From Thermoplasmata archaeon (GTDB lineage Archaea; Thermoplasmatota; Thermoplasmata; Thermoplasmatales; ARK-15): a stretch of 64,000 nt of DNA. How positions within the stretch are numbered: the first letter of the stretch is position 1; every line of letters begins with the position of its first letter. Below are positions 45,359-50,713 of this stretch, in pieces. The notes below the pieces were generated by a model. It saw nothing but the letters and a program-made list of their open reading frames with translations, was not told the DNA's origin and did no database searches. Location: contig JBAMMA010000017.1 of NCBI GenBank assembly GCA_039794005.1, forward strand, positions 28,737-92,736, given 5' to 3'. Both the position numbers and the translations under genes were made by a program.

Positions 45359-46552
45359 TTACAAAAGATCTTCAAATTCTTTTACGAGTTCAGGATATTT
45401 TTTCTGTACCGCATCCAATAGGCTCTTGACTGATATCGATGTTAATTCAACGGAAGATATTGCATCTACAAGTTTATTTAATGTCTCGTCAGAAAGTTCA
45501 GACAGTTTTTCCTTCGCATACCAGTTCCTCAAATTCTTTTTCTCAAATTTTTCCCTTACCTTCTTTTCATATTTTTCATATAAGAATTCCTTTGAGGTGT
45601 TCTTTGCCCTTATAGCCTCTGCTGCTGCTTCTCCCGCCAATTTTCCTGAAATGCATGCATTTGCTACGCCTCCGCCCGTAATAGGATCAATTAACCTGGC
45701 TGCATCACCAACCAACATAACGTTGTCCGTCACGATTGTTTTTGGCATGTAGCACGTTGAAACGGCACCTGTTATTAATTGAATTATTTTTCCTTTTTTA
45801 AGACCTGGATGTTTTTCAATAAAATCATCCAGATATTTTTTGACCTCTCCTGGCTCTTTCAATTTATTAAGAGCTACACCAATGCCTACGTTTGCCTCAT
45901 CCTTACCCTTAGGGAATACCCATACGTATCCTCCAGGTGCACAACTTCCTAGATAGAAATCGGTATAATCCTTATTTAGGTCTATTCCAACCATTCTGTA
46001 TTCAATGCATGATACGATATCTCTTTGATTTAAAAGAGTGTTAATTTTTGCCCATCTTCCAACTTGACTTTCGAATCCATCTGCACCTATGATTATCTTC
46101 GCATAGACATCAACAACACCTTCAGGTTTTCTTACCTTTGCCCCAACAACCTTGCCATTTTCGAAAATCAATGATATTGCTGGGCTTTTTACCCATATTT
46201 CAGCACCTTCCCTTGCGGCCAAGGATGCCAAGTATTTATCAAATTTATCCCTCTCAATTATATAACCTACTTCATTGCCAGCTTTAGATGCACTTAGTTT
46301 TATGTGATTTTTCTCATCTGGAGAAAATATTCTTGCACCCTCAACCTCATTTGAAATCCATTGCTTCTGAGGTTCTATTTCCACCTCTGGCAACCAACTT
46401 TTTGATATACCTTCGCCACACCTAACAGGAGAACCGATGTCTGGCCTTTTCTCTATTAACAAAACTTTAAGATTGTTCCTGGCCGCATATCTCGCAGCCG
46501 TGCTTCCTCCAGGTCCAGCACCTATGACAAGAACATCATATTCATACTTCAT
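45359..46552 (-). CDS. digeranylgeranylglycerophospholipid reductase (archaeal GGR)
   Basis: GAGPGG, PVRCGEG, APGGYVWVFPK, GDAARLIDPITGGG. Confidence 0.93.
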   Translation of the reverse strand: MKYEYDVLVIGAGPGGSTAARYAARNNLKVLLIEKRPDIGSPVRCGEGISKSWLPEVEIEPQKQWISNEVEGARIFSPDEKNHIKLSASKAGNEVGYIIERDKFDKYLASLAAREGAEIWVKSPAISLIFENGKVVGAKVRKPEGVVDVYAKIIIGADGFESQVGRWAKINTLLNQRDIVSCIEYRMVGIDLNKDYTDFYLGSCAPGGYVWVFPKGKDEANVGIGVALNKLKEPGEVKKYLDDFIEKHPGLKKGKIIQLITGAVSTCYMPKTIVTDNVMLVGDAARLIDPITGGGVANACISGKLAGEAAAEAIRAKNTSKEFLYEKYEKKVREKFEKKNLRNWYAKEKLSELSDETLNKLVDAISSVELTSISVKSLLDAVQKKYPELVKEFEDLL

Positions 46553-46725
46553 TTAAACCACTCCGCAGATATTGCACCCATTGGGCATACCCTTATACAA
46601 AATCCGCATTTTATACAGCTACTTTCGTCTATTACAACTCTAGTCTCATCCAGAAACATGCAATTTGCAGGGCATGAGCCTACACATGCCCCACAGTAAT
46701 TGCATTTTGATGTATCTACGGTCAT
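46549..46725 (-). CDS. 2[4Fe-4S] ferredoxin, 58 aa (below ORF track cutoff)
   Basis: MTVDTSKCNYCGACVGSCPANCMFLDETRVVIDESSCIKCGFCIRVCPMGAISAEWFK; two CxxCxxCxxxCP motifs. Confidence 0.92.
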   Translation of the reverse strand: MTVDTSKCNYCGACVGSCPANCMFLDETRVVIDESSCIKCGFCIRVCPMGAISAEWFK

Positions 46726-48287
46726 CAAAGTCCTTCCACCCCCACAACCGTTCCATGTCTCTGTCTATATTCTTCAAGGGATATTGAAAATTTCTTTTCT
46801 ATTTCTGTTCTATATACAGGACCAGAATTGTATGCACAAAATGGAATTATCCTACCATCAGGTGTTGCATAATGTATAACGCATCTTTTAAGTCTTTCCA
46901 AATCATAATTATATTCATCCTGGAAGTGCATGGCTCCTATGAACAGGGAATCCCAGTGCAATTTACCTAATGATTCCTTTGTTCCCTCTTGGAATATATC
47001 TAGAATCTCCTTCAATTTGAAATGTGAAGGTGCATTCTTTGCATCATAATATTTCTTAAATATCCTGTAAATTGTTGGTAATGTTAATACCTTTGTTCTT
47101 TTCTCAAATTTTTCCTGCATTACAAGAGGAATTAATTCTTCCCATAATCCTTCAACGTCTATAAACCTGGTTATTGGTATTATCTTATTTTGATCATAAT
47201 CTTTTAACAGGTATGTGGCGGTTCCGCAATGTGGATGGGATGTAAATGCAACATAATATTTATTTAAAATTTGACTTGCCAGTTCTGAGAATAGTGCAGC
47301 TACAGGTATTGGGAAAAAGTCATCCTTTTCAAAATAGGGTGTTTGATTTATTAGGTCTCTTATCAAATCTCCTTGCGTATATCTACCGACTATCAATTCA
47401 TCCTGGGGTATTCTTCCCGCAAAACTAACCGGCTGATAATTAACAGATCTTATTACATCCAGATTCTTTAATGCAAATTCTATTATTTGACCAACTTCAT
47501 CATCATTTACACCTTTAACAATAACGGGGACCAAAACTGTTGCGAGTGGCTTTGGTTTTGTATTTCTCAAATATTCTATGGCCTGCAACTTTTCCTTTAA
47601 AAATCCAGGCCTTCCCCTTGTTTTGATATAAGTTGAATCCTTGAATCCATCAAATTGTAAATAGACTGTGTGTAATCCTGCATCAAGCATTTTTTGTGCA
47701 AAGTCCGGTTCATGCGCAATCCTTAAACCATTTGTGGCCACCTGTATTTGTGCAAACCCCAATTCCTTCGCTTTCGCAATAACTTCTAAAAACTTAGGAT
47801 ATATTGTTGGTTCTCCACCAGCAAATTGAACGGCAGGTGTTGGGACAGGCTTTTCATTCCTCAAAACCTCCATCATCTTTACAACTTGTTCAAATGTTGG
47901 TTCATAGACATATCCGGCGGCATTTGCATTTGCAAAGCATATTGGGCACTTTAAATTGCATCTATTTGTCAAATCTATGTTTGCAAGTGCCGTGTGACTA
48001 TAATGCAAAACGCACAAACCACAATCATATGGGCAATTTGACCCATTAATATTAGGATTTTGAACCCCCACTCCATCTATGGCAAATTTTTCATATCTTA
48101 AATAAACATCAACATCGCCAAAATAGATATCCTTAAATTCACCATGCTCAGGGCATGTCTTTTTATACATTACCTTTCCATTTTCTTCATATATTGTTGC
48201 AGGGATTACCTTTTTGCAGACTGGACATATTGATAACGTTTCCTTTGGCAATCCTTTTTTCAACTTTGATTGTTGAATTACGCGCAT
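46725..48287 (-). CDS. tes: tetraether lipid synthase Tes (GDGT-MAS, radical SAM, MJ0619 family)
   Basis: N-terminal CPVC...CPEHG, CPYDCGLC..H, CNLKCPIC radical SAM motif, HPHCG, RCVIHYATPDGRIIPFCAYN. Confidence 0.88.
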   Translation of the reverse strand: MRVIQQSKLKKGLPKETLSICPVCKKVIPATIYEENGKVMYKKTCPEHGEFKDIYFGDVDVYLRYEKFAIDGVGVQNPNINGSNCPYDCGLCVLHYSHTALANIDLTNRCNLKCPICFANANAAGYVYEPTFEQVVKMMEVLRNEKPVPTPAVQFAGGEPTIYPKFLEVIAKAKELGFAQIQVATNGLRIAHEPDFAQKMLDAGLHTVYLQFDGFKDSTYIKTRGRPGFLKEKLQAIEYLRNTKPKPLATVLVPVIVKGVNDDEVGQIIEFALKNLDVIRSVNYQPVSFAGRIPQDELIVGRYTQGDLIRDLINQTPYFEKDDFFPIPVAALFSELASQILNKYYVAFTSHPHCGTATYLLKDYDQNKIIPITRFIDVEGLWEELIPLVMQEKFEKRTKVLTLPTIYRIFKKYYDAKNAPSHFKLKEILDIFQEGTKESLGKLHWDSLFIGAMHFQDEYNYDLERLKRCVIHYATPDGRIIPFCAYNSGPVYRTEIEKKFSISLEEYRQRHGTVVGVEGL

Positions 48288-48339
48288 CTATCCCACCTTG
48301 CACTTTTAATTTAAAATTTAAATAAAAGTGTTATGTAGC

Positions 48340-48972
48340 TTATCTAGCTACAGTTTTTCTTTCCTTATAATATTTGCAATAATTATTTACCGGGCATATT
48401 TCACACTTTGGATTTCTTGGTAAACATATTTTTTTACCAAATTCAACAAAATATTCATTTATTTTTTTCCAATATTTTTTATCAATAATTTCCATTAATT
48501 TTTTCTCTGTTTCCTCCGGTGTTTTTGTATTTACAATTCCAATTCTATTCATTATCCTATGAACATGGGTATCCACAGCTATGTAATCCTTATCAAAACA
48601 AACGCTCAACACTATATTGGCAGTCTTAGAACCAACACCTGGAAGAAACAATAAATCTTCTTTATTGTCTGGCACATTTCCATTATATTTTTCGATTAAA
48701 ATCTTAGCTACTTCCTTTATATTTTTTGCCTTAGCCCTGTAGAATCCTATTCCTTTGATTAATTCCATTAATTCATCAATATTGGCATTCTTTAATTCAT
48801 CAAGCGTTTTATATCTTTCATATAACAATTTAGATATCTTTTCAGTCGTTTCATCCTTGGTTCTCTGGGATAATATTGTTGAGATCAAAACCTTCCAAGG
48901 TTCTTTAAAAGGATGTTTATGCGGTTCTACACTTTCAAAAATTTTTCTTAATATTTTTTCATAATCCTTCAT
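48340..48972 (-). CDS. nth: endonuclease III
   Basis: ILSQRTKD, LPGVGSKTA HhH, VDTHVHR, C..R.PKC..CP....C. Confidence 0.93.
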   Translation of the reverse strand: MKDYEKILRKIFESVEPHKHPFKEPWKVLISTILSQRTKDETTEKISKLLYERYKTLDELKNANIDELMELIKGIGFYRAKAKNIKEVAKILIEKYNGNVPDNKEDLLFLPGVGSKTANIVLSVCFDKDYIAVDTHVHRIMNRIGIVNTKTPEETEKKLMEIIDKKYWKKINEYFVEFGKKICLPRNPKCEICPVNNYCKYYKERKTVAR

Positions 48973-48976
48973 TTTT

Positions 48977-50713
48977 TCACCTGAAAACATATGCTGGGCA
49001 TGGTCCTAAACATGCAGAGCAATTCATGCACAAATCTTCAATTATCCATGCCTTATTATCCCTTATTTCAATTGCATTATATTTACATCTTCCTGAACAT
49101 ATACCACATCCTACACATTCCTCTGATTGATATATTATTTGGACTAATTGATCTTTCAATGATTTCTCTGCTTCAACATAATTTTCTTTAATGTTATAAA
49201 CTTCTCTTGGCAAAATGTTAAGCATATTTTTCAGTCTTTCTATATCAAATTTATCTATTTTTATTCTAATTTTTTCATTTTCTTCATATTCTAACTTTAA
49301 TGTATTTCTATCTATATTTTCAACACCAAATTCATTTTTTAAATGTTCTGGAATGTTTTTCCATCTCCAAAGGCCATATTTAATTCTTATTTCAGCATCC
49401 TTATGTCCTTTGAAATATTCGTACAGATAATCCTCCCAACCTTTGAAATCTTTATAAAATTTCTTCACTATTTCTATATCACCCATATCTTGTGAAGGAC
49501 AGAGATAACATCCTATTCTCCATAGTCCTCTTTCATACCATGGATTATATTCAAGATTCCTGTAAAAGATGTACAACCAGATGCTAAGAGAATCCCAATT
49601 TTGTATTGGGCTGAATGCTTTTTGGTTTGGAACCCATTCATTCTCCCATTGTCCTGAATTTTTATATCTGGTAAAACTTTCATATTTTCTTTGACCTATT
49701 ATTACATAAACTTCACCCTTGTCTCTCAAATATCTAGTTGTTGGACCTAGCTTACATACCTTGCAACACCATCTATAATCTCTTCCTGGCGGGCCGAAAT
49801 GGTTCAGAGATTTGAAAAATGCATCTCCTGCATCTATTATATCCATATCTATTCCATATTTTTCTTTTATTTTATTTACATAATTGATAGTTTCTGGAAA
49901 TTCTAAACCTGTGTTTAAGAAAAATACCTTGAATTTTATGCCTGACAAAATTGTTAAATAAAGACTTATAAGGGAATCTTTTCCACCGCTAAATGATACT
50001 AAAACATTTTTACCTTCAAACTTCTTTATTTCTTTTATTGCTTTGGCTTCGATTTTATTCAGGTACGATATATTTGCTTTTACCATTTTATCTATATCTG
50101 CCTTTTTAACCCTGATTTCTTTTTTATCATTCAGATATTTGATTTTAACAGAAACTCCCTTACCATCTTTTGGCTTTTTAAATATTCCAGTTGCAATACA
50201 GTTTTTATTTCTATCTAAAACAAATACATGTTCATTTTCATTTATATCTTTTGAATATTCCAAAACTCCTGGCCACATCAAGTTTTTACCTTCTTTTATA
50301 GATTCAATTGCACCATCATCGGCAATAACAATTTTACCTTTTATATATTCTTTAAAGAGATCGTAAAATATTGGTCTTAGAGAAACATGGTAAGAACCAT
50401 TTTTATAATATATTGTGAAAATTACATCACCGTGCATTATTATTTCCTCGGCCCTATCTTCATTGGGTATTTTGTTCAATAATACAGCATAATCTTTAAC
50501 AATATCTGAAAATTTTCCTGTAATATAATTTGACAGGATTTCATCAATTCTATTGAAATCCTCTTTAAACAGGATCCTCATTTCACCAGGAGGAGTTATT
50601 TTCAATTCTCTAGGAACATTATTACAAATATCACACTTTTCTCCAATAACAGGAAGATCACATTCATCGCACCATTTTACATTTATTTTACCAAGAAATA
50701 TTGGACCTGACAT
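48977..50713 (-). CDS. Zn-ribbon/PUA/PAPS-reductase-like (PP-loop)/ferredoxin multidomain protein
   Basis: WCDEC..CDIC; PUA-like DDGAIESIKEGKNLMWPGV; SFSGGKDS; NTGLEFPET; RWCCKVCK; RIGCYLCP; C-terminal CVGCGICSGRC and CMNCSACLGPCP. Confidence 0.85.
   Translation of the reverse strand: MSGPIFLGKINVKWCDECDLPVIGEKCDICNNVPRELKITPPGEMRILFKEDFNRIDEILSNYITGKFSDIVKDYAVLLNKIPNEDRAEEIIMHGDVIFTIYYKNGSYHVSLRPIFYDLFKEYIKGKIVIADDGAIESIKEGKNLMWPGVLEYSKDINENEHVFVLDRNKNCIATGIFKKPKDGKGVSVKIKYLNDKKEIRVKKADIDKMVKANISYLNKIEAKAIKEIKKFEGKNVLVSFSGGKDSLISLYLTILSGIKFKVFFLNTGLEFPETINYVNKIKEKYGIDMDIIDAGDAFFKSLNHFGPPGRDYRWCCKVCKLGPTTRYLRDKGEVYVIIGQRKYESFTRYKNSGQWENEWVPNQKAFSPIQNWDSLSIWLYIFYRNLEYNPWYERGLWRIGCYLCPSQDMGDIEIVKKFYKDFKGWEDYLYEYFKGHKDAEIRIKYGLWRWKNIPEHLKNEFGVENIDRNTLKLEYEENEKIRIKIDKFDIERLKNMLNILPREVYNIKENYVEAEKSLKDQLVQIIYQSEECVGCGICSGRCKYNAIEIRDNKAWIIEDLCMNCSACLGPCPAYVFR

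Follow-up and report, generated by a model that had tools for sequence, protein, structure and literature searches.

A conserved archaeal protein fusing a PUA module to the core of DNA phosphorothioate writers, a candidate for sulfur modification of RNA

The enzymes that put sulfur into the DNA backbone share a PAPS-reductase-like PP-loop core. DndC (DNA phosphorothioation sulfurtransferase), SspD and BrxP (BREX type 4 PAPS-reductase protein) are DNA phosphorothioate (PT) writers that work with partner ATPases, and brxP together with brxC confers DNA PT dinucleotides (PMC12914056). The tdp system, by contrast, needs one gene only (tdpC), and the title of its source paper names an adenylated intermediate. 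The same superfamily includes the assimilatory APS/PAPS reductases (CysH). TtuA, NcsA and TtcA, which belong to a different PP-loop family, thiolate tRNA using a [4Fe-4S] cluster, and have three-Cys clusters and Zn fingers rather than PUA, and no ferredoxin domain. PUA domains preceded by a C2 domain are found in archaeosine tRNA-guanine transglycosylase (ArcTGT), and stand-alone archaeal PUA proteins such as PH0734 and Ta1423 are also described. Whether RNA naturally carries phosphorothioate is contested, as the only claim that we found, made in 2020 for prokaryotes and eukaryotes and discussed in a review, was refuted for E. coli, yeast, human cells and mouse brain. Kaiser et al. 2021 call for 34S labelling, synthetic-standard and iodine-desulfurization controls in the analysis of such modifications. 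Here we describe a gene from a Thermoplasmata archaeon (GCA_039794005.1) that pairs the complete catalytic core of DNA PT writers with a tRNA-type docking module.

Domain anatomy and kinship with PT writers

The gene lies in a 64,000-nt stretch of contig JBAMMA010000017.1, hereafter the window, and codes for 578 amino acid residues. A sequence-only reading had proposed a PUA domain fused to a PP-loop Fe-S enzyme lacking the ECGLH motif of APS/PAPS reductases, and this observation was confirmed. The following features were delineated:

48977..50713 (-), whole gene, 578 aa plus stop, member of NCBIfam NF010367 (PRK13795.1-2, "hypothetical protein")
50621..50677 (-), N-terminal predicted Zn ribbon (residues ~13-31; C15, C18, C27, C30)
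50339..50596 (-), pre-PUA domain (residues ~40-125), like the C2 domain of ArcTGT
50129..50338 (-), PUA domain (residues ~126-195)
49493..50005 (-), PAPS-reductase-like PP-loop ATP-pyrophosphatase domain (Pfam span 237-407)
49973..49996 (-), canonical PP-loop SFSGGKDS (residues 240-247)
49763..49768 (-), tandem cysteines C316-C317, predicted [4Fe-4S] ligands
49499..49510 (-), C402-x-x-C405 (GCYLCP), predicted [4Fe-4S] ligands
49139..49486 (-), W-rich motif and alpha/beta linker domain (residues ~410-525)
48980..49138 (-), C-terminal 2x[4Fe-4S] ferredoxin domain (residues ~526-578; two CxxCxxCxxxC motifs)

The whole protein scores 512.4 bits against the NF010367 cut-off of 456 (E 1.5e-153, residues 4-575 against profile positions 4-582 of 584). 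Pfam searches gave PAPS_reduct (PF01507) at residues 237-407 (E 8.6e-46), PUA (PF01472) at 128-177 (E 6e-13, 49 bits against a cut-off of 24.8) and Fer4_21 at 530-574 (E 2.1e-6). The family is far beyond chance, with 2140 homologues at E<=1e-5 among the 8000 candidates scored and 303 representative clusters at E<=1e-30. An AlphaFold2 model was obtained with a pLDDT of 96.3 and a pTM of 0.93; it provided the secondary structure of the linker domain and has a beta-hairpin at residues 13-22, within the Zn ribbon, for which metal binding is inferred. A motif scan located CDEC at residue 15, CDIC at 27, CCKVC at 316, CYLC at 402 and CxxCxxCxxxC at 533 and 562, and no ECG[LI]H. The four cysteines of the Zn ribbon are invariant in an alignment of 18 sequences and at least 90% conserved in one of 91 sequences. 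In the latter, S242, G243 and G244 of the PP-loop are invariant and K245, D246 and S247 at least 90% conserved, C316, C402, C405 and all 8 cysteines of the ferredoxin domain are invariant, and C317 is at least 90% conserved. The sequence-only reading had given RWCCKVCK as Fe-S ligands, but only C316 and C317 of this motif are conserved, C320 being N in several homologues. C316/C317 and C402/C405 align to the cluster cysteines of P. aeruginosa APS reductase 2goy (CC and GCEPC), from which cluster binding is inferred.

The N-terminal module is of the RNA/tRNA-binding type. Over positions 48-204, the family profile matches PH0734 (3d79, E 1.1e-18) and residues 433-579 of ArcTGT (1iq8, E 3.1e-10), and it also hits the PUA domains of Cbf5, NSun6 and MCT-1, while Foldseek retrieves 3d79 and 1q7h with the model. 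Pfam TGT_C2 is precomputed on several homologues and was found on P0158. Unlike in ArcTGT and PH0734, the module is here fused to a PP-loop/Fe-S enzyme and preceded by a Zn ribbon; RNA binding by this protein is inferred from sequence and structure similarity.

We next compared the remainder of the protein to characterized enzymes and found that residues ~185-578 are homologous end to end to BrxP/SspD-type PT writers, which is new. The PADLOC BrxP model PDLC02510 matches residues 189-569 against profile positions 81-499 of 779 (E 2.3e-49), compared to 3e-11 for SspD and 3.6e-10 for DndC. BLASTP of the protein against annotated loci gave an Ssp-like Treponema enzyme at 1.6e-42 over residues 227-569, BrxP of a BREX-4 locus at 7.6e-28 over 186-569, CysH at 5e-19 only to residue 405, and DndC at 3e-14. 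HHalign of the family profile against a PT-writer profile gave a probability of 100% and E 3.9e-66 over 414 columns. The core is collinear with that of BrxP and the ferredoxin-bearing subset of SspD, comprising a helix, the PP-loop SFSGGKDS, RWC(C), RxxESxxR, GCxxCP, the W-motif, the alpha/beta linker, which aligns column for column with BrxP and corresponds to the alpha+beta domain described for BrxP (PMC12839542, section 34), and the double-cluster ferredoxin, which aligns to the Cys-rich region of BrxP. The CxxC pair is shared with BrxP, the Ssp-like enzyme and DndC, whereas BrxP and DndC have a single Cys at the CC position.

On the other hand, the protein differs from BrxP in having a Zn ribbon, pre-PUA and PUA module instead of the BrxP-specific N-terminus, and no C-terminal DUF4007 (SspB-like) part. 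It has no hit to the C-terminal BrxP model PDLC02511 and scores 166 bits, against 724-993 bits for three true BrxP that cover profile positions 1-775. DndC has the canonical SGGKDS PP-loop and the RWC...GCxxC site but no ferredoxin domain or PUA, and the match is partial and weak (TIGR03183, 36.8 bits against a cut-off of 290.4, covering only residues ~308-394). The closest writer is BrxP with the ferredoxin-bearing SspD subset, not DndC. In a domain tree of 33 rows and 234 columns, all 19 family rows, 4 short paralogues, 3 BrxP, the Ssp-like enzyme, two plasmid proteins and DndC fall on one side of a 95/86 branch, and CysH (100/99) and the CysD-like root on the other. The backbone inside the large clade is unresolved, several rows are long-branched and the root is a long branch, so that a sister relationship with PT writers cannot be stated more finely.

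The sulfate reduction hypothesis

Given its fold, the protein could be an assimilatory APS/PAPS reductase that takes electrons from its own ferredoxin domain instead of thioredoxin, with a regulatory or vestigial PUA module. The best solved-structure matches are indeed APS and PAPS reductases (2goy, 1sur; 2goy at E 2.8e-13 by sequence and, as the best Foldseek hit, E 3.5e-10 by fold), and the CC...CxxC site is identical to that of APS reductase. However, no conserved free cysteine exists besides the metal ligands in 18 or 91 homologues, while both CysH examples that we examined have the C-terminal motif (ECGLH, ECGFH) and read SFSGAED at the PP-loop, which is of the canonical ATP type here. 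The protein also scores below the curated cut-offs of the reductase models (PRK02090, 80 bits against 154; APS_reductase TIGR02055, 71.8 against 235.3; TIGR00434, 62 against 165.1; TIGR02057, 45.9 against 254.2), and the tree separates the family from CysH.

The sequence-only reading had noted no sulfate-assimilation or dnd/ssp genes in the window, and this absence extends to the 87%-complete host genome, in which we found no ATP sulfurylase (PF01747), no APS kinase above cut-off (PF01583), no NIR_SIR sulfite reductase (PF01077), and only 3 PAPS_reduct-type matches. These are this gene, a Cys-free CysD-like ORF on another contig and an NcsA/TtuA-like gene, the last two lying outside the window; no further PF01507 gene of the DndC type was found. 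In a 201-genome phylum sample, ATP sulfurylase is commoner in family-positive genomes (46 of 103) than in family-negative ones (20 of 98). Nevertheless, of the 103 family-positive genomes, 57 lack ATP sulfurylase, 87 lack NIR_SIR, 42 lack both and only 1 has both.

The reductase hypothesis draws further support from the related M. jannaschii proteins MJ0973 and MJ0066 (primary reports Lee 2011; Cho 2013 thesis), archaeal homologues from this organism being cited as biochemically characterized APS and PAPS reductases (PMC6286981; PMC10322725). The nearest NCBIfam neighbours of the catalytic domain are the shorter archaeal models PRK08557 and PRK08576 (E 1.4e-60 and 2.5e-40), although our protein is below the cut-off of both. 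Short paralogues from related genomes also start with a Zn ribbon and nest in the same clade, but the short forms that we retrieved lack the ferredoxin domain. M. jannaschii holds a strong match to the PRK13795 subfamily model (E<=1e-100), which may be one of the reported reductases, but it matches PRK08557 as well, and the cluster names of 10 representatives included no Methanocaldococcus member. MJ_0973 activity is described as having low Vmax and kcat, and M. infernus carries such homologues plus ATPS, APSK and Fsr but could not grow on sulfate. Altogether, we consider an APS/PAPS reductase role unlikely.

Distribution and gene context

The family is present in 103 of the 201 genomes and is lineage-wide and vertical-looking (19/19, 11/11 and 22/24 genomes in the lineages labelled f4, f9 and f23), whereas true BrxP is sporadic (2 of 201). 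Methanosarcina acetivorans also holds a match to the subfamily model at E<=1e-100, and full-length Methanosarcinaceae homologues are present in loci L088, L102, L105, L106 and L109. The neighbours of the gene code for endonuclease III, Tes, geranylgeranyl reductase and an MFS transporter, with no dnd genes and no brxC, pglZ or brxL, in contrast to the operon in locus L119, nor any restriction or ATPase partner. We found no conserved neighbour in 21 loci, namely those of 20 of the 103 family-positive genomes plus the window. The best neighbour cluster was an aminotransferase in 6 of 21 loci, and in 2 of them (L018, L022) ORF calling did not recover a clustered family member. The lack of a conserved partner ATPase weakens the analogy with BrxP, SspD and DndC. 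These observations bear on the possibility that the protein is a chromosomal, defence-independent DNA PT writer whose PUA-like module reads DNA. Core homology to BrxP and SspD and the existence of the single-gene writer tdpC are compatible with this view, but the classical RNA-type PUA with its ArcTGT-C2-like domain, the absence of DUF4007, the gene context and the distribution make it very unlikely.

We also considered whether the protein replaces ThiI and rejected this idea, because ThiI-like matches occur in 169 of 201 genomes, including every genome of lineages f4, f7, f9 and f23 and the nearest relative (G079); the lack of ThiI in the host may reflect its 87% completeness.

A candidate RNA sulfur-insertion enzyme

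The interpretation offered by the sequence-only reading, a stand-alone enzyme that adenylates and thiolates RNA, plausibly at a backbone phosphate of tRNA or rRNA, is partly supported: the architecture, the RNA-type module, the distinction from CysH and the kinship to DNA PT writers hold, whereas thiolation of RNA, at the backbone or at all, remains an inference. The recent reports of archaeal RNA phosphorothioates to which it alluded could not be confirmed, as our literature searches found nothing for archaea. Our favored hypothesis is a housekeeping, stand-alone RNA-modifying enzyme of anaerobic archaea. In this view, the Zn ribbon, pre-PUA and PUA module would dock on a structured RNA, most likely the acceptor/CCA end of tRNA, and the PP-loop domain would use ATP to adenylate an oxygen of that RNA. 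A [4Fe-4S] cluster held by C316/C317/C402/C405 beside the nucleotide site would deliver or activate sulfur, which displaces AMP, and the ferredoxin domain would feed electrons, for example to reduce a persulfide donor or keep the catalytic cluster reduced. Since the whole catalytic, linker and ferredoxin core is homologous to BrxP/SspD-type writers, and every characterized member of the PAPS-reductase superfamily works, to our knowledge, on phosphate or sulfate anhydrides, we favor a phosphate of the RNA (backbone, or possibly terminal) as the most likely single target, giving an RNA phosphorothioate. Our analysis establishes the domain anatomy, the homologies, the phyletic pattern and the absence of a sulfate pathway, whereas RNA binding, adenylation, sulfur transfer and the target atom are inferred. 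RNA sulfur insertion in general appears somewhat more likely than not, but the phosphate target is only tentative, given that no natural RNA phosphorothioate is established and that the catalytic cluster has four predicted Cys ligands, as in APS reductase, whereas TtuA-type sulfide carriers use three.

Base thiolation (s2U, s4U, s2C or similar) is the next possibility. Like TtuA, TtcA or NcsA, the enzyme would adenylate a base carbonyl to be replaced by sulfide bound to the [4Fe-4S] cluster, the PUA module setting the distance from the CCA end. This live alternative is consistent with Foldseek hits to TtuA with its cluster and ATP analogue (5b4e, E 6.2e-8; 5mkp), with the combination of a canonical PP-loop, an adjacent Fe-S site and an RNA module, and with the fact that base thiolation, unlike RNA PT, is an established chemistry of RNA. 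Yet sequence kinship is weak to TtuA (NF049949, 27.4 bits against a cut-off of 450, E 1.7e-6) and negligible to TtcA (13.8 against 272), whereas the NcsA/TtuA-like gene already present in the host scores 255.9 and 190.9 bits. No member of the PAPS_reduct superfamily is known to thiolate a base, no orphan archaeal thionucleoside that needs an enzyme is known, ThiI-like genes co-occur with the family in nearly all lineages, and non-redox thiolation would not need a fused 2x[4Fe-4S] domain. We thus regard this alternative as doubtful, although it ranks directly behind the phosphate target.

The gene gives the question of natural RNA phosphorothioates a concrete genetic handle. Hundreds of archaeal genes labelled "PAPS reductase" sit in genomes that encode no sulfate-reduction pathway, and their presence has been used to infer assimilatory sulfate reduction in methanogens and ANME (PMC6286981; PMC10322725), an annotation that our analysis corrects. 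It also suggests where the defence PT writers may have come from in evolution. In the boldest, and rather unlikely, scenario, the family would be the first natural writer of an RNA backbone phosphorothioate, a housekeeping, tRNA-directed enzyme of anaerobic archaea whose relatives or offshoots would be BrxP, the ferredoxin-bearing SspD and perhaps DndC, and whose product standard nucleoside LC-MS would have missed. Literature searches on fusions of PUA with PAPS reductase returned no paper about this family, although Supplementary Data S3 of PMC12839542 and the Supplementary Table 1 and Fig. 3 accessions of PMC6286981 might already list PUA-fused relatives or identify the M. jannaschii proteins, and a 2002 comparative-genomics paper may reportedly have predicted a thiolase role for PUA-PAPS fusions. 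Searches on PUA domains with PP-loops in archaea, on PAPS reductase-like proteins with tRNA in archaea, and on MJ0066 returned nothing, while that on MJ0973, COG0175 and PRK13795 returned one relevant paper.

Finally, the protein could catalyze an ATP-dependent RNA modification that is reductive but does not insert sulfur, for example adenylation followed by Fe-S-mediated reduction or another nucleophile, or it could adenylylate an RNA terminal phosphate. The PP-loop superfamily uses adenylation for many outcomes, and the fused electron-transfer domain points to redox chemistry. This reading is unlikely because the relatives with experimental support nearest to the core all handle sulfur, and no specific orphan modification can be named. 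In favor of this reading, one relative (P0207) replaces the ferredoxin domain with an eEF1A C-terminal-like domain, so the ferredoxin is not indispensable to the core.

An intact and conserved 578-aa gene

We first examined the open reading frame on which the sequence-only reading was based and the genes around it, using an ORF scan, a motif scan and Pfam searches. The following features were located:

48977-50713, minus strand: intact ORF of 578 aa
residues 15 and 27: CDEC and CDIC, respectively
residue 240: PP-loop SFSGGKDS
residues 316 and 402: CCKVC and CYLC, respectively
residues 533 and 562: two CxxCxxCxxxC motifs
residues 237-407: Pfam PAPS_reduct, E 8.6e-46
residues 128-177: Pfam PUA, E 6e-13
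residues 530-574: Pfam 4Fe-4S dicluster families
45359-48990, minus strand: block of three neighbouring genes, as follows
48340-48990: downstream endonuclease III, overlapping the end of the 578-aa gene by 14 bases
46725-48287: tetraether lipid synthase Tes
45359-46552: geranylgeranyl reductase (digeranylgeranylglycerophospholipid reductase)

The motif scan detected no ECG[LI]H. The observation made from the sequence alone is confirmed, as the gene is real and conserved: 2140 homologues were found at E<=1e-5 among the 8000 candidates scored, an exhaustive scan returned 303 representative clusters at E<=1e-30, and an AlphaFold2 model built on 91 sequences has a mean pLDDT of 96.3 and a pTM of 0.93. 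One correction is needed, because the third cysteine of CCKVC, which had been counted in a proposed Fe-S ligand motif, is not conserved. The conserved set is C316, C317, C402 and C405, and these residues align to the [4Fe-4S] ligands of P. aeruginosa APS reductase (2goy).

NCBIfam places the protein above cut-off in PRK13795.1-2 (NF010367), an equivalog named only "hypothetical protein" (512.4 against 456 bits). Public sources call its relatives "phosphoadenosine phosphosulfate reductase family protein", and some ESM Atlas clusters carry the automatic name "PUA-PAPS reductase like fusion". Literature searches returned no paper about the family, although they covered only CC-licensed PMC papers and bioRxiv and are therefore not proof that nothing is in print. 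Nearly the full DNA of the gene occurs in two sequencing runs labelled hot springs metagenome, one of which may be the source sample, and three other runs contain only small shares of it.

Upstream of the gene lies an MFS transporter, and only the closest relative (locus L011) keeps the order of endonuclease III, Tes and the reductase. We next compared 21 loci, namely the window and loci from 20 of the 103 family-positive genomes, and found no neighbour conserved across them. The best was an aminotransferase in 6 of 21, and in 2 of the 21 loci ORF calling did not recover a clustered family member. In a 201-genome sample of the phylum the family is found in 103 genomes and follows lineages. It is present in the families labelled f4 (19/19), f7 (4/4), f9 (11/11) and f23 (22/24) and was not found in f3 (0/6), f12 (0/14), f14 (0/9), f20 (0/16) and f30 (0/21). 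Outside the phylum, named relatives come from Methanosarcinaceae, Thermococci, Aenigmatarchaeota and Thermoproteota/Brockarchaeota, and M. jannaschii and M. acetivorans, used as controls, hold matches to the subfamily's model at E<=1e-100. This is the pattern of a stand-alone housekeeping gene.

Predicted RNA-docking module and kinship to DNA phosphorothioate writers

A profile of 18 family members matched the stand-alone archaeal PUA protein PH0734 (3d79, E 1.1e-18, profile positions 48-204), the C2+PUA domains of archaeosine tRNA-guanine transglycosylase (1iq8 residues 433-579, E 3.1e-10), and the PUA domains of Cbf5, NSun6 and MCT-1. Several homologues carry Pfam TGT_C2. Modules of this type grip the acceptor/CCA end of tRNA or an equivalent helix-plus-tail, a role that for the present protein is inferred by analogy.

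By fold and by PDB sequence search, the nearest solved proteins to the catalytic core are APS and PAPS reductases. When the domain alone was scored against curated models, PRK13795 ranked at the top, followed by PRK08557 (E 1.4e-60), PRK08576 (2.5e-40), CysH (1.5e-22), APS reductase (6.4e-20), CysD (3.4e-11), DndC (2.2e-9, partial) and TtuA (1.7e-6). The decisive result came from a search against defence-system models, in which the PADLOC BrxP model matched residues 189-569 at E 2.3e-49, a region that comprises the catalytic domain, the linker and the ferredoxin domain together.

A tblastn search of that core against plasmids found four records covering at least 88% of it, two of which are versions of the same Methanosphaera plasmid accession. 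This plasmid carries a textbook BREX type 4 locus with a PAPS-reductase protein, a large ATPase, a "BREX-4 phosphatase PglZ" and BrxL. Another record is an Ssp-like cluster formed by the enzyme, a DUF4007 protein, a large protein and a class-V aminotransferase. In this record, Treponema saccharophilum plasmid pTS1 (L112:9097-10356, plus strand), the Ssp-like PAPS-reductase+ferredoxin ORF has no gene listed under it in the plasmid table, which is known to be incomplete, and sits in an apparent PT cluster (HNH endonuclease, DUF4007, a 1201-aa protein, a class-V aminotransferase, a helicase). The remaining record is a small, 18-kb plasmid of Methanobacterium congolense (L114:7926-9071, plus strand) whose minimal 381-aa PAPS-reductase+ferredoxin protein has no PUA, no DUF4007 and no BREX or Ssp genes nearby, and is a possible stand-alone writer.

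BLASTP of the whole protein gave the Ssp-like Treponema enzyme at E 1.6e-42 (query residues 227-569), the M. congolense plasmid enzyme at 1.9e-32 (221-568), BrxP at 7.6e-28 (186-569), CysH at 5e-19 (only to residue 405) and DndC at 3e-14 (238-392). HHalign of the 91-sequence family profile against 5 PT-system enzymes gave a probability of 100% and an E-value of 3.9e-66 over 414 aligned columns. The alignment shows the shared features SFSGGKDS, RWC(C), RxxESxxR, GCxxCP, a W-rich motif, the alpha/beta linker and the double-cluster ferredoxin, whereas CysH ends just after the W-motif with its ECGLH tail.

We also built a maximum-likelihood tree of the PP-loop domain with 33 rows, 234 columns and the LG+C20+F+G4 model, in which the family rows were 18 of the 150 listed representatives plus the window protein. 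CysH is recovered at 100/99. Across a 95/86 branch sits one group that holds all 19 family rows, 4 short paralogues, 3 BrxP, the Ssp-like enzyme, two plasmid proteins and DndC. Inside that group the backbone is unresolved, six rows are long-branched, and the root, which is the host's CysD-like protein, is itself long. The shorter paralogues (422-527 aa; L121:1860-3128, plus strand, and loci L122, L123 and L124) start with the same Zn ribbon and nest within the same clade as the long family; the one scanned (L121) has no ferredoxin domain and lies next to a biotin-protein ligase.

Deletion of brxC abolished DNA PT dinucleotides, and brxP, brxC and mcrA together conferred PTs on a PT-free Bacteroides host, whereas brxC alone did not (PMC12914056). 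The same source states that the tdp system needs a single gene, tdpC, and the title of the paper it cites names an adenylated intermediate. BrxP has been described as a PAPS reductase, a Mog1p/PsbP-like alpha+beta domain and a Cys-rich ferredoxin-like region fused to DUF4007, an arrangement said to occur also in a subset of SspD, with extra elements whose role is considered unclear (PMC12839542, section 34). PUA-fused archaeal relatives are not mentioned in the text of that paper that we examined.

True BrxP is nonetheless different from the present gene. Three genuine BrxP score 724-993 bits on the BrxP model and carry the C-terminal part, while this protein scores 166 bits and lacks that part. 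A related archaeal genome (G131) has a full brxP-C-Z-L operon in addition to its PUA-fused gene. Locus L119 (893-10435, minus strand) holds a complete BREX type 4 operon (BrxP 993 bits, BrxC 2138, PglZ 1407, BrxL 782) and locus L120 (4643-10163, minus strand) holds a BrxP+BrxC pair, both in archaeal genomes that also carry the PUA-fused gene. BrxP occurs in 2 of the 201 sampled genomes, against 103 of 201 for the family.

Comparison with APS/PAPS reductases

Archaeal CysH-like proteins with extra Fe-S domains have been read as assimilatory APS/PAPS reductases, a reading that rests on M. jannaschii enzymes (PMC6286981, PMC10322725). M. jannaschii holds a strong match to this subfamily's model, which may or may not be one of the assayed proteins. 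In addition, ATP sulfurylase occurs in 46 of 103 family-positive genomes and in 20 of 98 family-negative ones, a positive association, although related genomes are not independent.

Against the reductase reading, the protein has no catalytic C-terminal cysteine and no other conserved free cysteine, its P-loop is of the ATP type, its scores are below all CysH cut-offs, and the tree separates the family from CysH. The 87%-complete host genome has no ATP sulfurylase, no APS kinase above cut-off and no sulfite reductase. It does encode, outside the window on contig C20 (L002:1363-2211, plus strand), a cysteine-free CysD-like PAPS_reduct protein of 282 aa that is below every curated cut-off (CysD 101.9 bits against 195). 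Of the 103 family-positive genomes, 57 lack ATP sulfurylase, 87 lack NIR_SIR, 42 lack both and one (G011) has both. MJ_0973 activity is described as low in Vmax and kcat, and M. infernus has such homologues plus ATPS, APSK and Fsr but did not grow on sulfate, and the authors question the role of these genes. We consider a reductase function unlikely.

Base or backbone as the candidate RNA target

The host has a separate NcsA/TtuA-type gene, and ThiI-like genes co-occur with the family in nearly all lineages (169 of 201 genomes; f4 19/19, f9 11/11, f23 24/24). The family is therefore not filling an obvious gap in base thiolation. In many genomes of the phylum the ThiI model matches two separate ORFs (e.g. 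G084:C2:51639-52235 and G084:C2:92542-93129, in sampled genome G084), at model positions 1-205 in frames of ~300 aa and 174-368 in frames of ~210-230 aa, such that ThiI appears to be split into separate N-terminal and PP-loop genes.

As far as has been described, characterised members of the PAPS_reduct superfamily (CysH, CysD, FMN adenylyltransferase, DndC, SspD and BrxP) act on phosphate or sulfate anhydrides, and the nearest relatives with experimental support write phosphorothioates. These considerations tip us toward a phosphate of RNA as the target. However, no natural RNA phosphorothioate is established: the 2020 claim (reviewed in PMC8341892) was disproved for E. coli, yeast, human cells and mouse brain (PMC8597057), and our literature searches found nothing for archaea. 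The putative four-Cys cluster also resembles APS reductase more than it resembles a three-Cys sulfide carrier.

The interpretation that this is a stand-alone enzyme that adenylates and thiolates RNA, plausibly at a backbone phosphate, is partly supported, and in one respect it is better supported than could be known from the sequence alone, since there is full-core homology to BrxP/SspD-type PT writers rather than a vague DndC likeness. While the gene, its conservation and these homologies are established by the analysis, RNA binding, sulfur insertion and the nature of the product are inferred. Sulfur insertion into RNA of any kind, which takes the phosphate and base targets together, is somewhat more likely than not. 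Of the two, a phosphate target is favoured only tentatively, and base thiolation is a less likely possibility. A non-sulfur RNA chemistry is as unlikely as the reductase reading, and a DNA target is very unlikely. The family is already catalogued but uncharacterised; what differs from the PT writers described so far is that their core is here joined to a predicted RNA-docking module in a stand-alone gene with a housekeeping pattern. If RNA phosphorothioation is confirmed, it would be categorically new.

One family member (protein P0207, 733 aa) keeps the N-terminal and PP-loop core but has an eEF1A/EF-Tu C-terminal-like domain (PF22594, E 5.3e-20) where the ferredoxin domain normally sits, which could be another tRNA link or a CysN-like link. 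Most genomes of family f4 hold two full-length paralogues of the PUA-fused enzyme, one above and one below the NF010367 cut-off (e.g. G148:C1:1263067-1264968 and G148:C1:259696-261549, in sampled genome G148), which hints at two targets or specificities.
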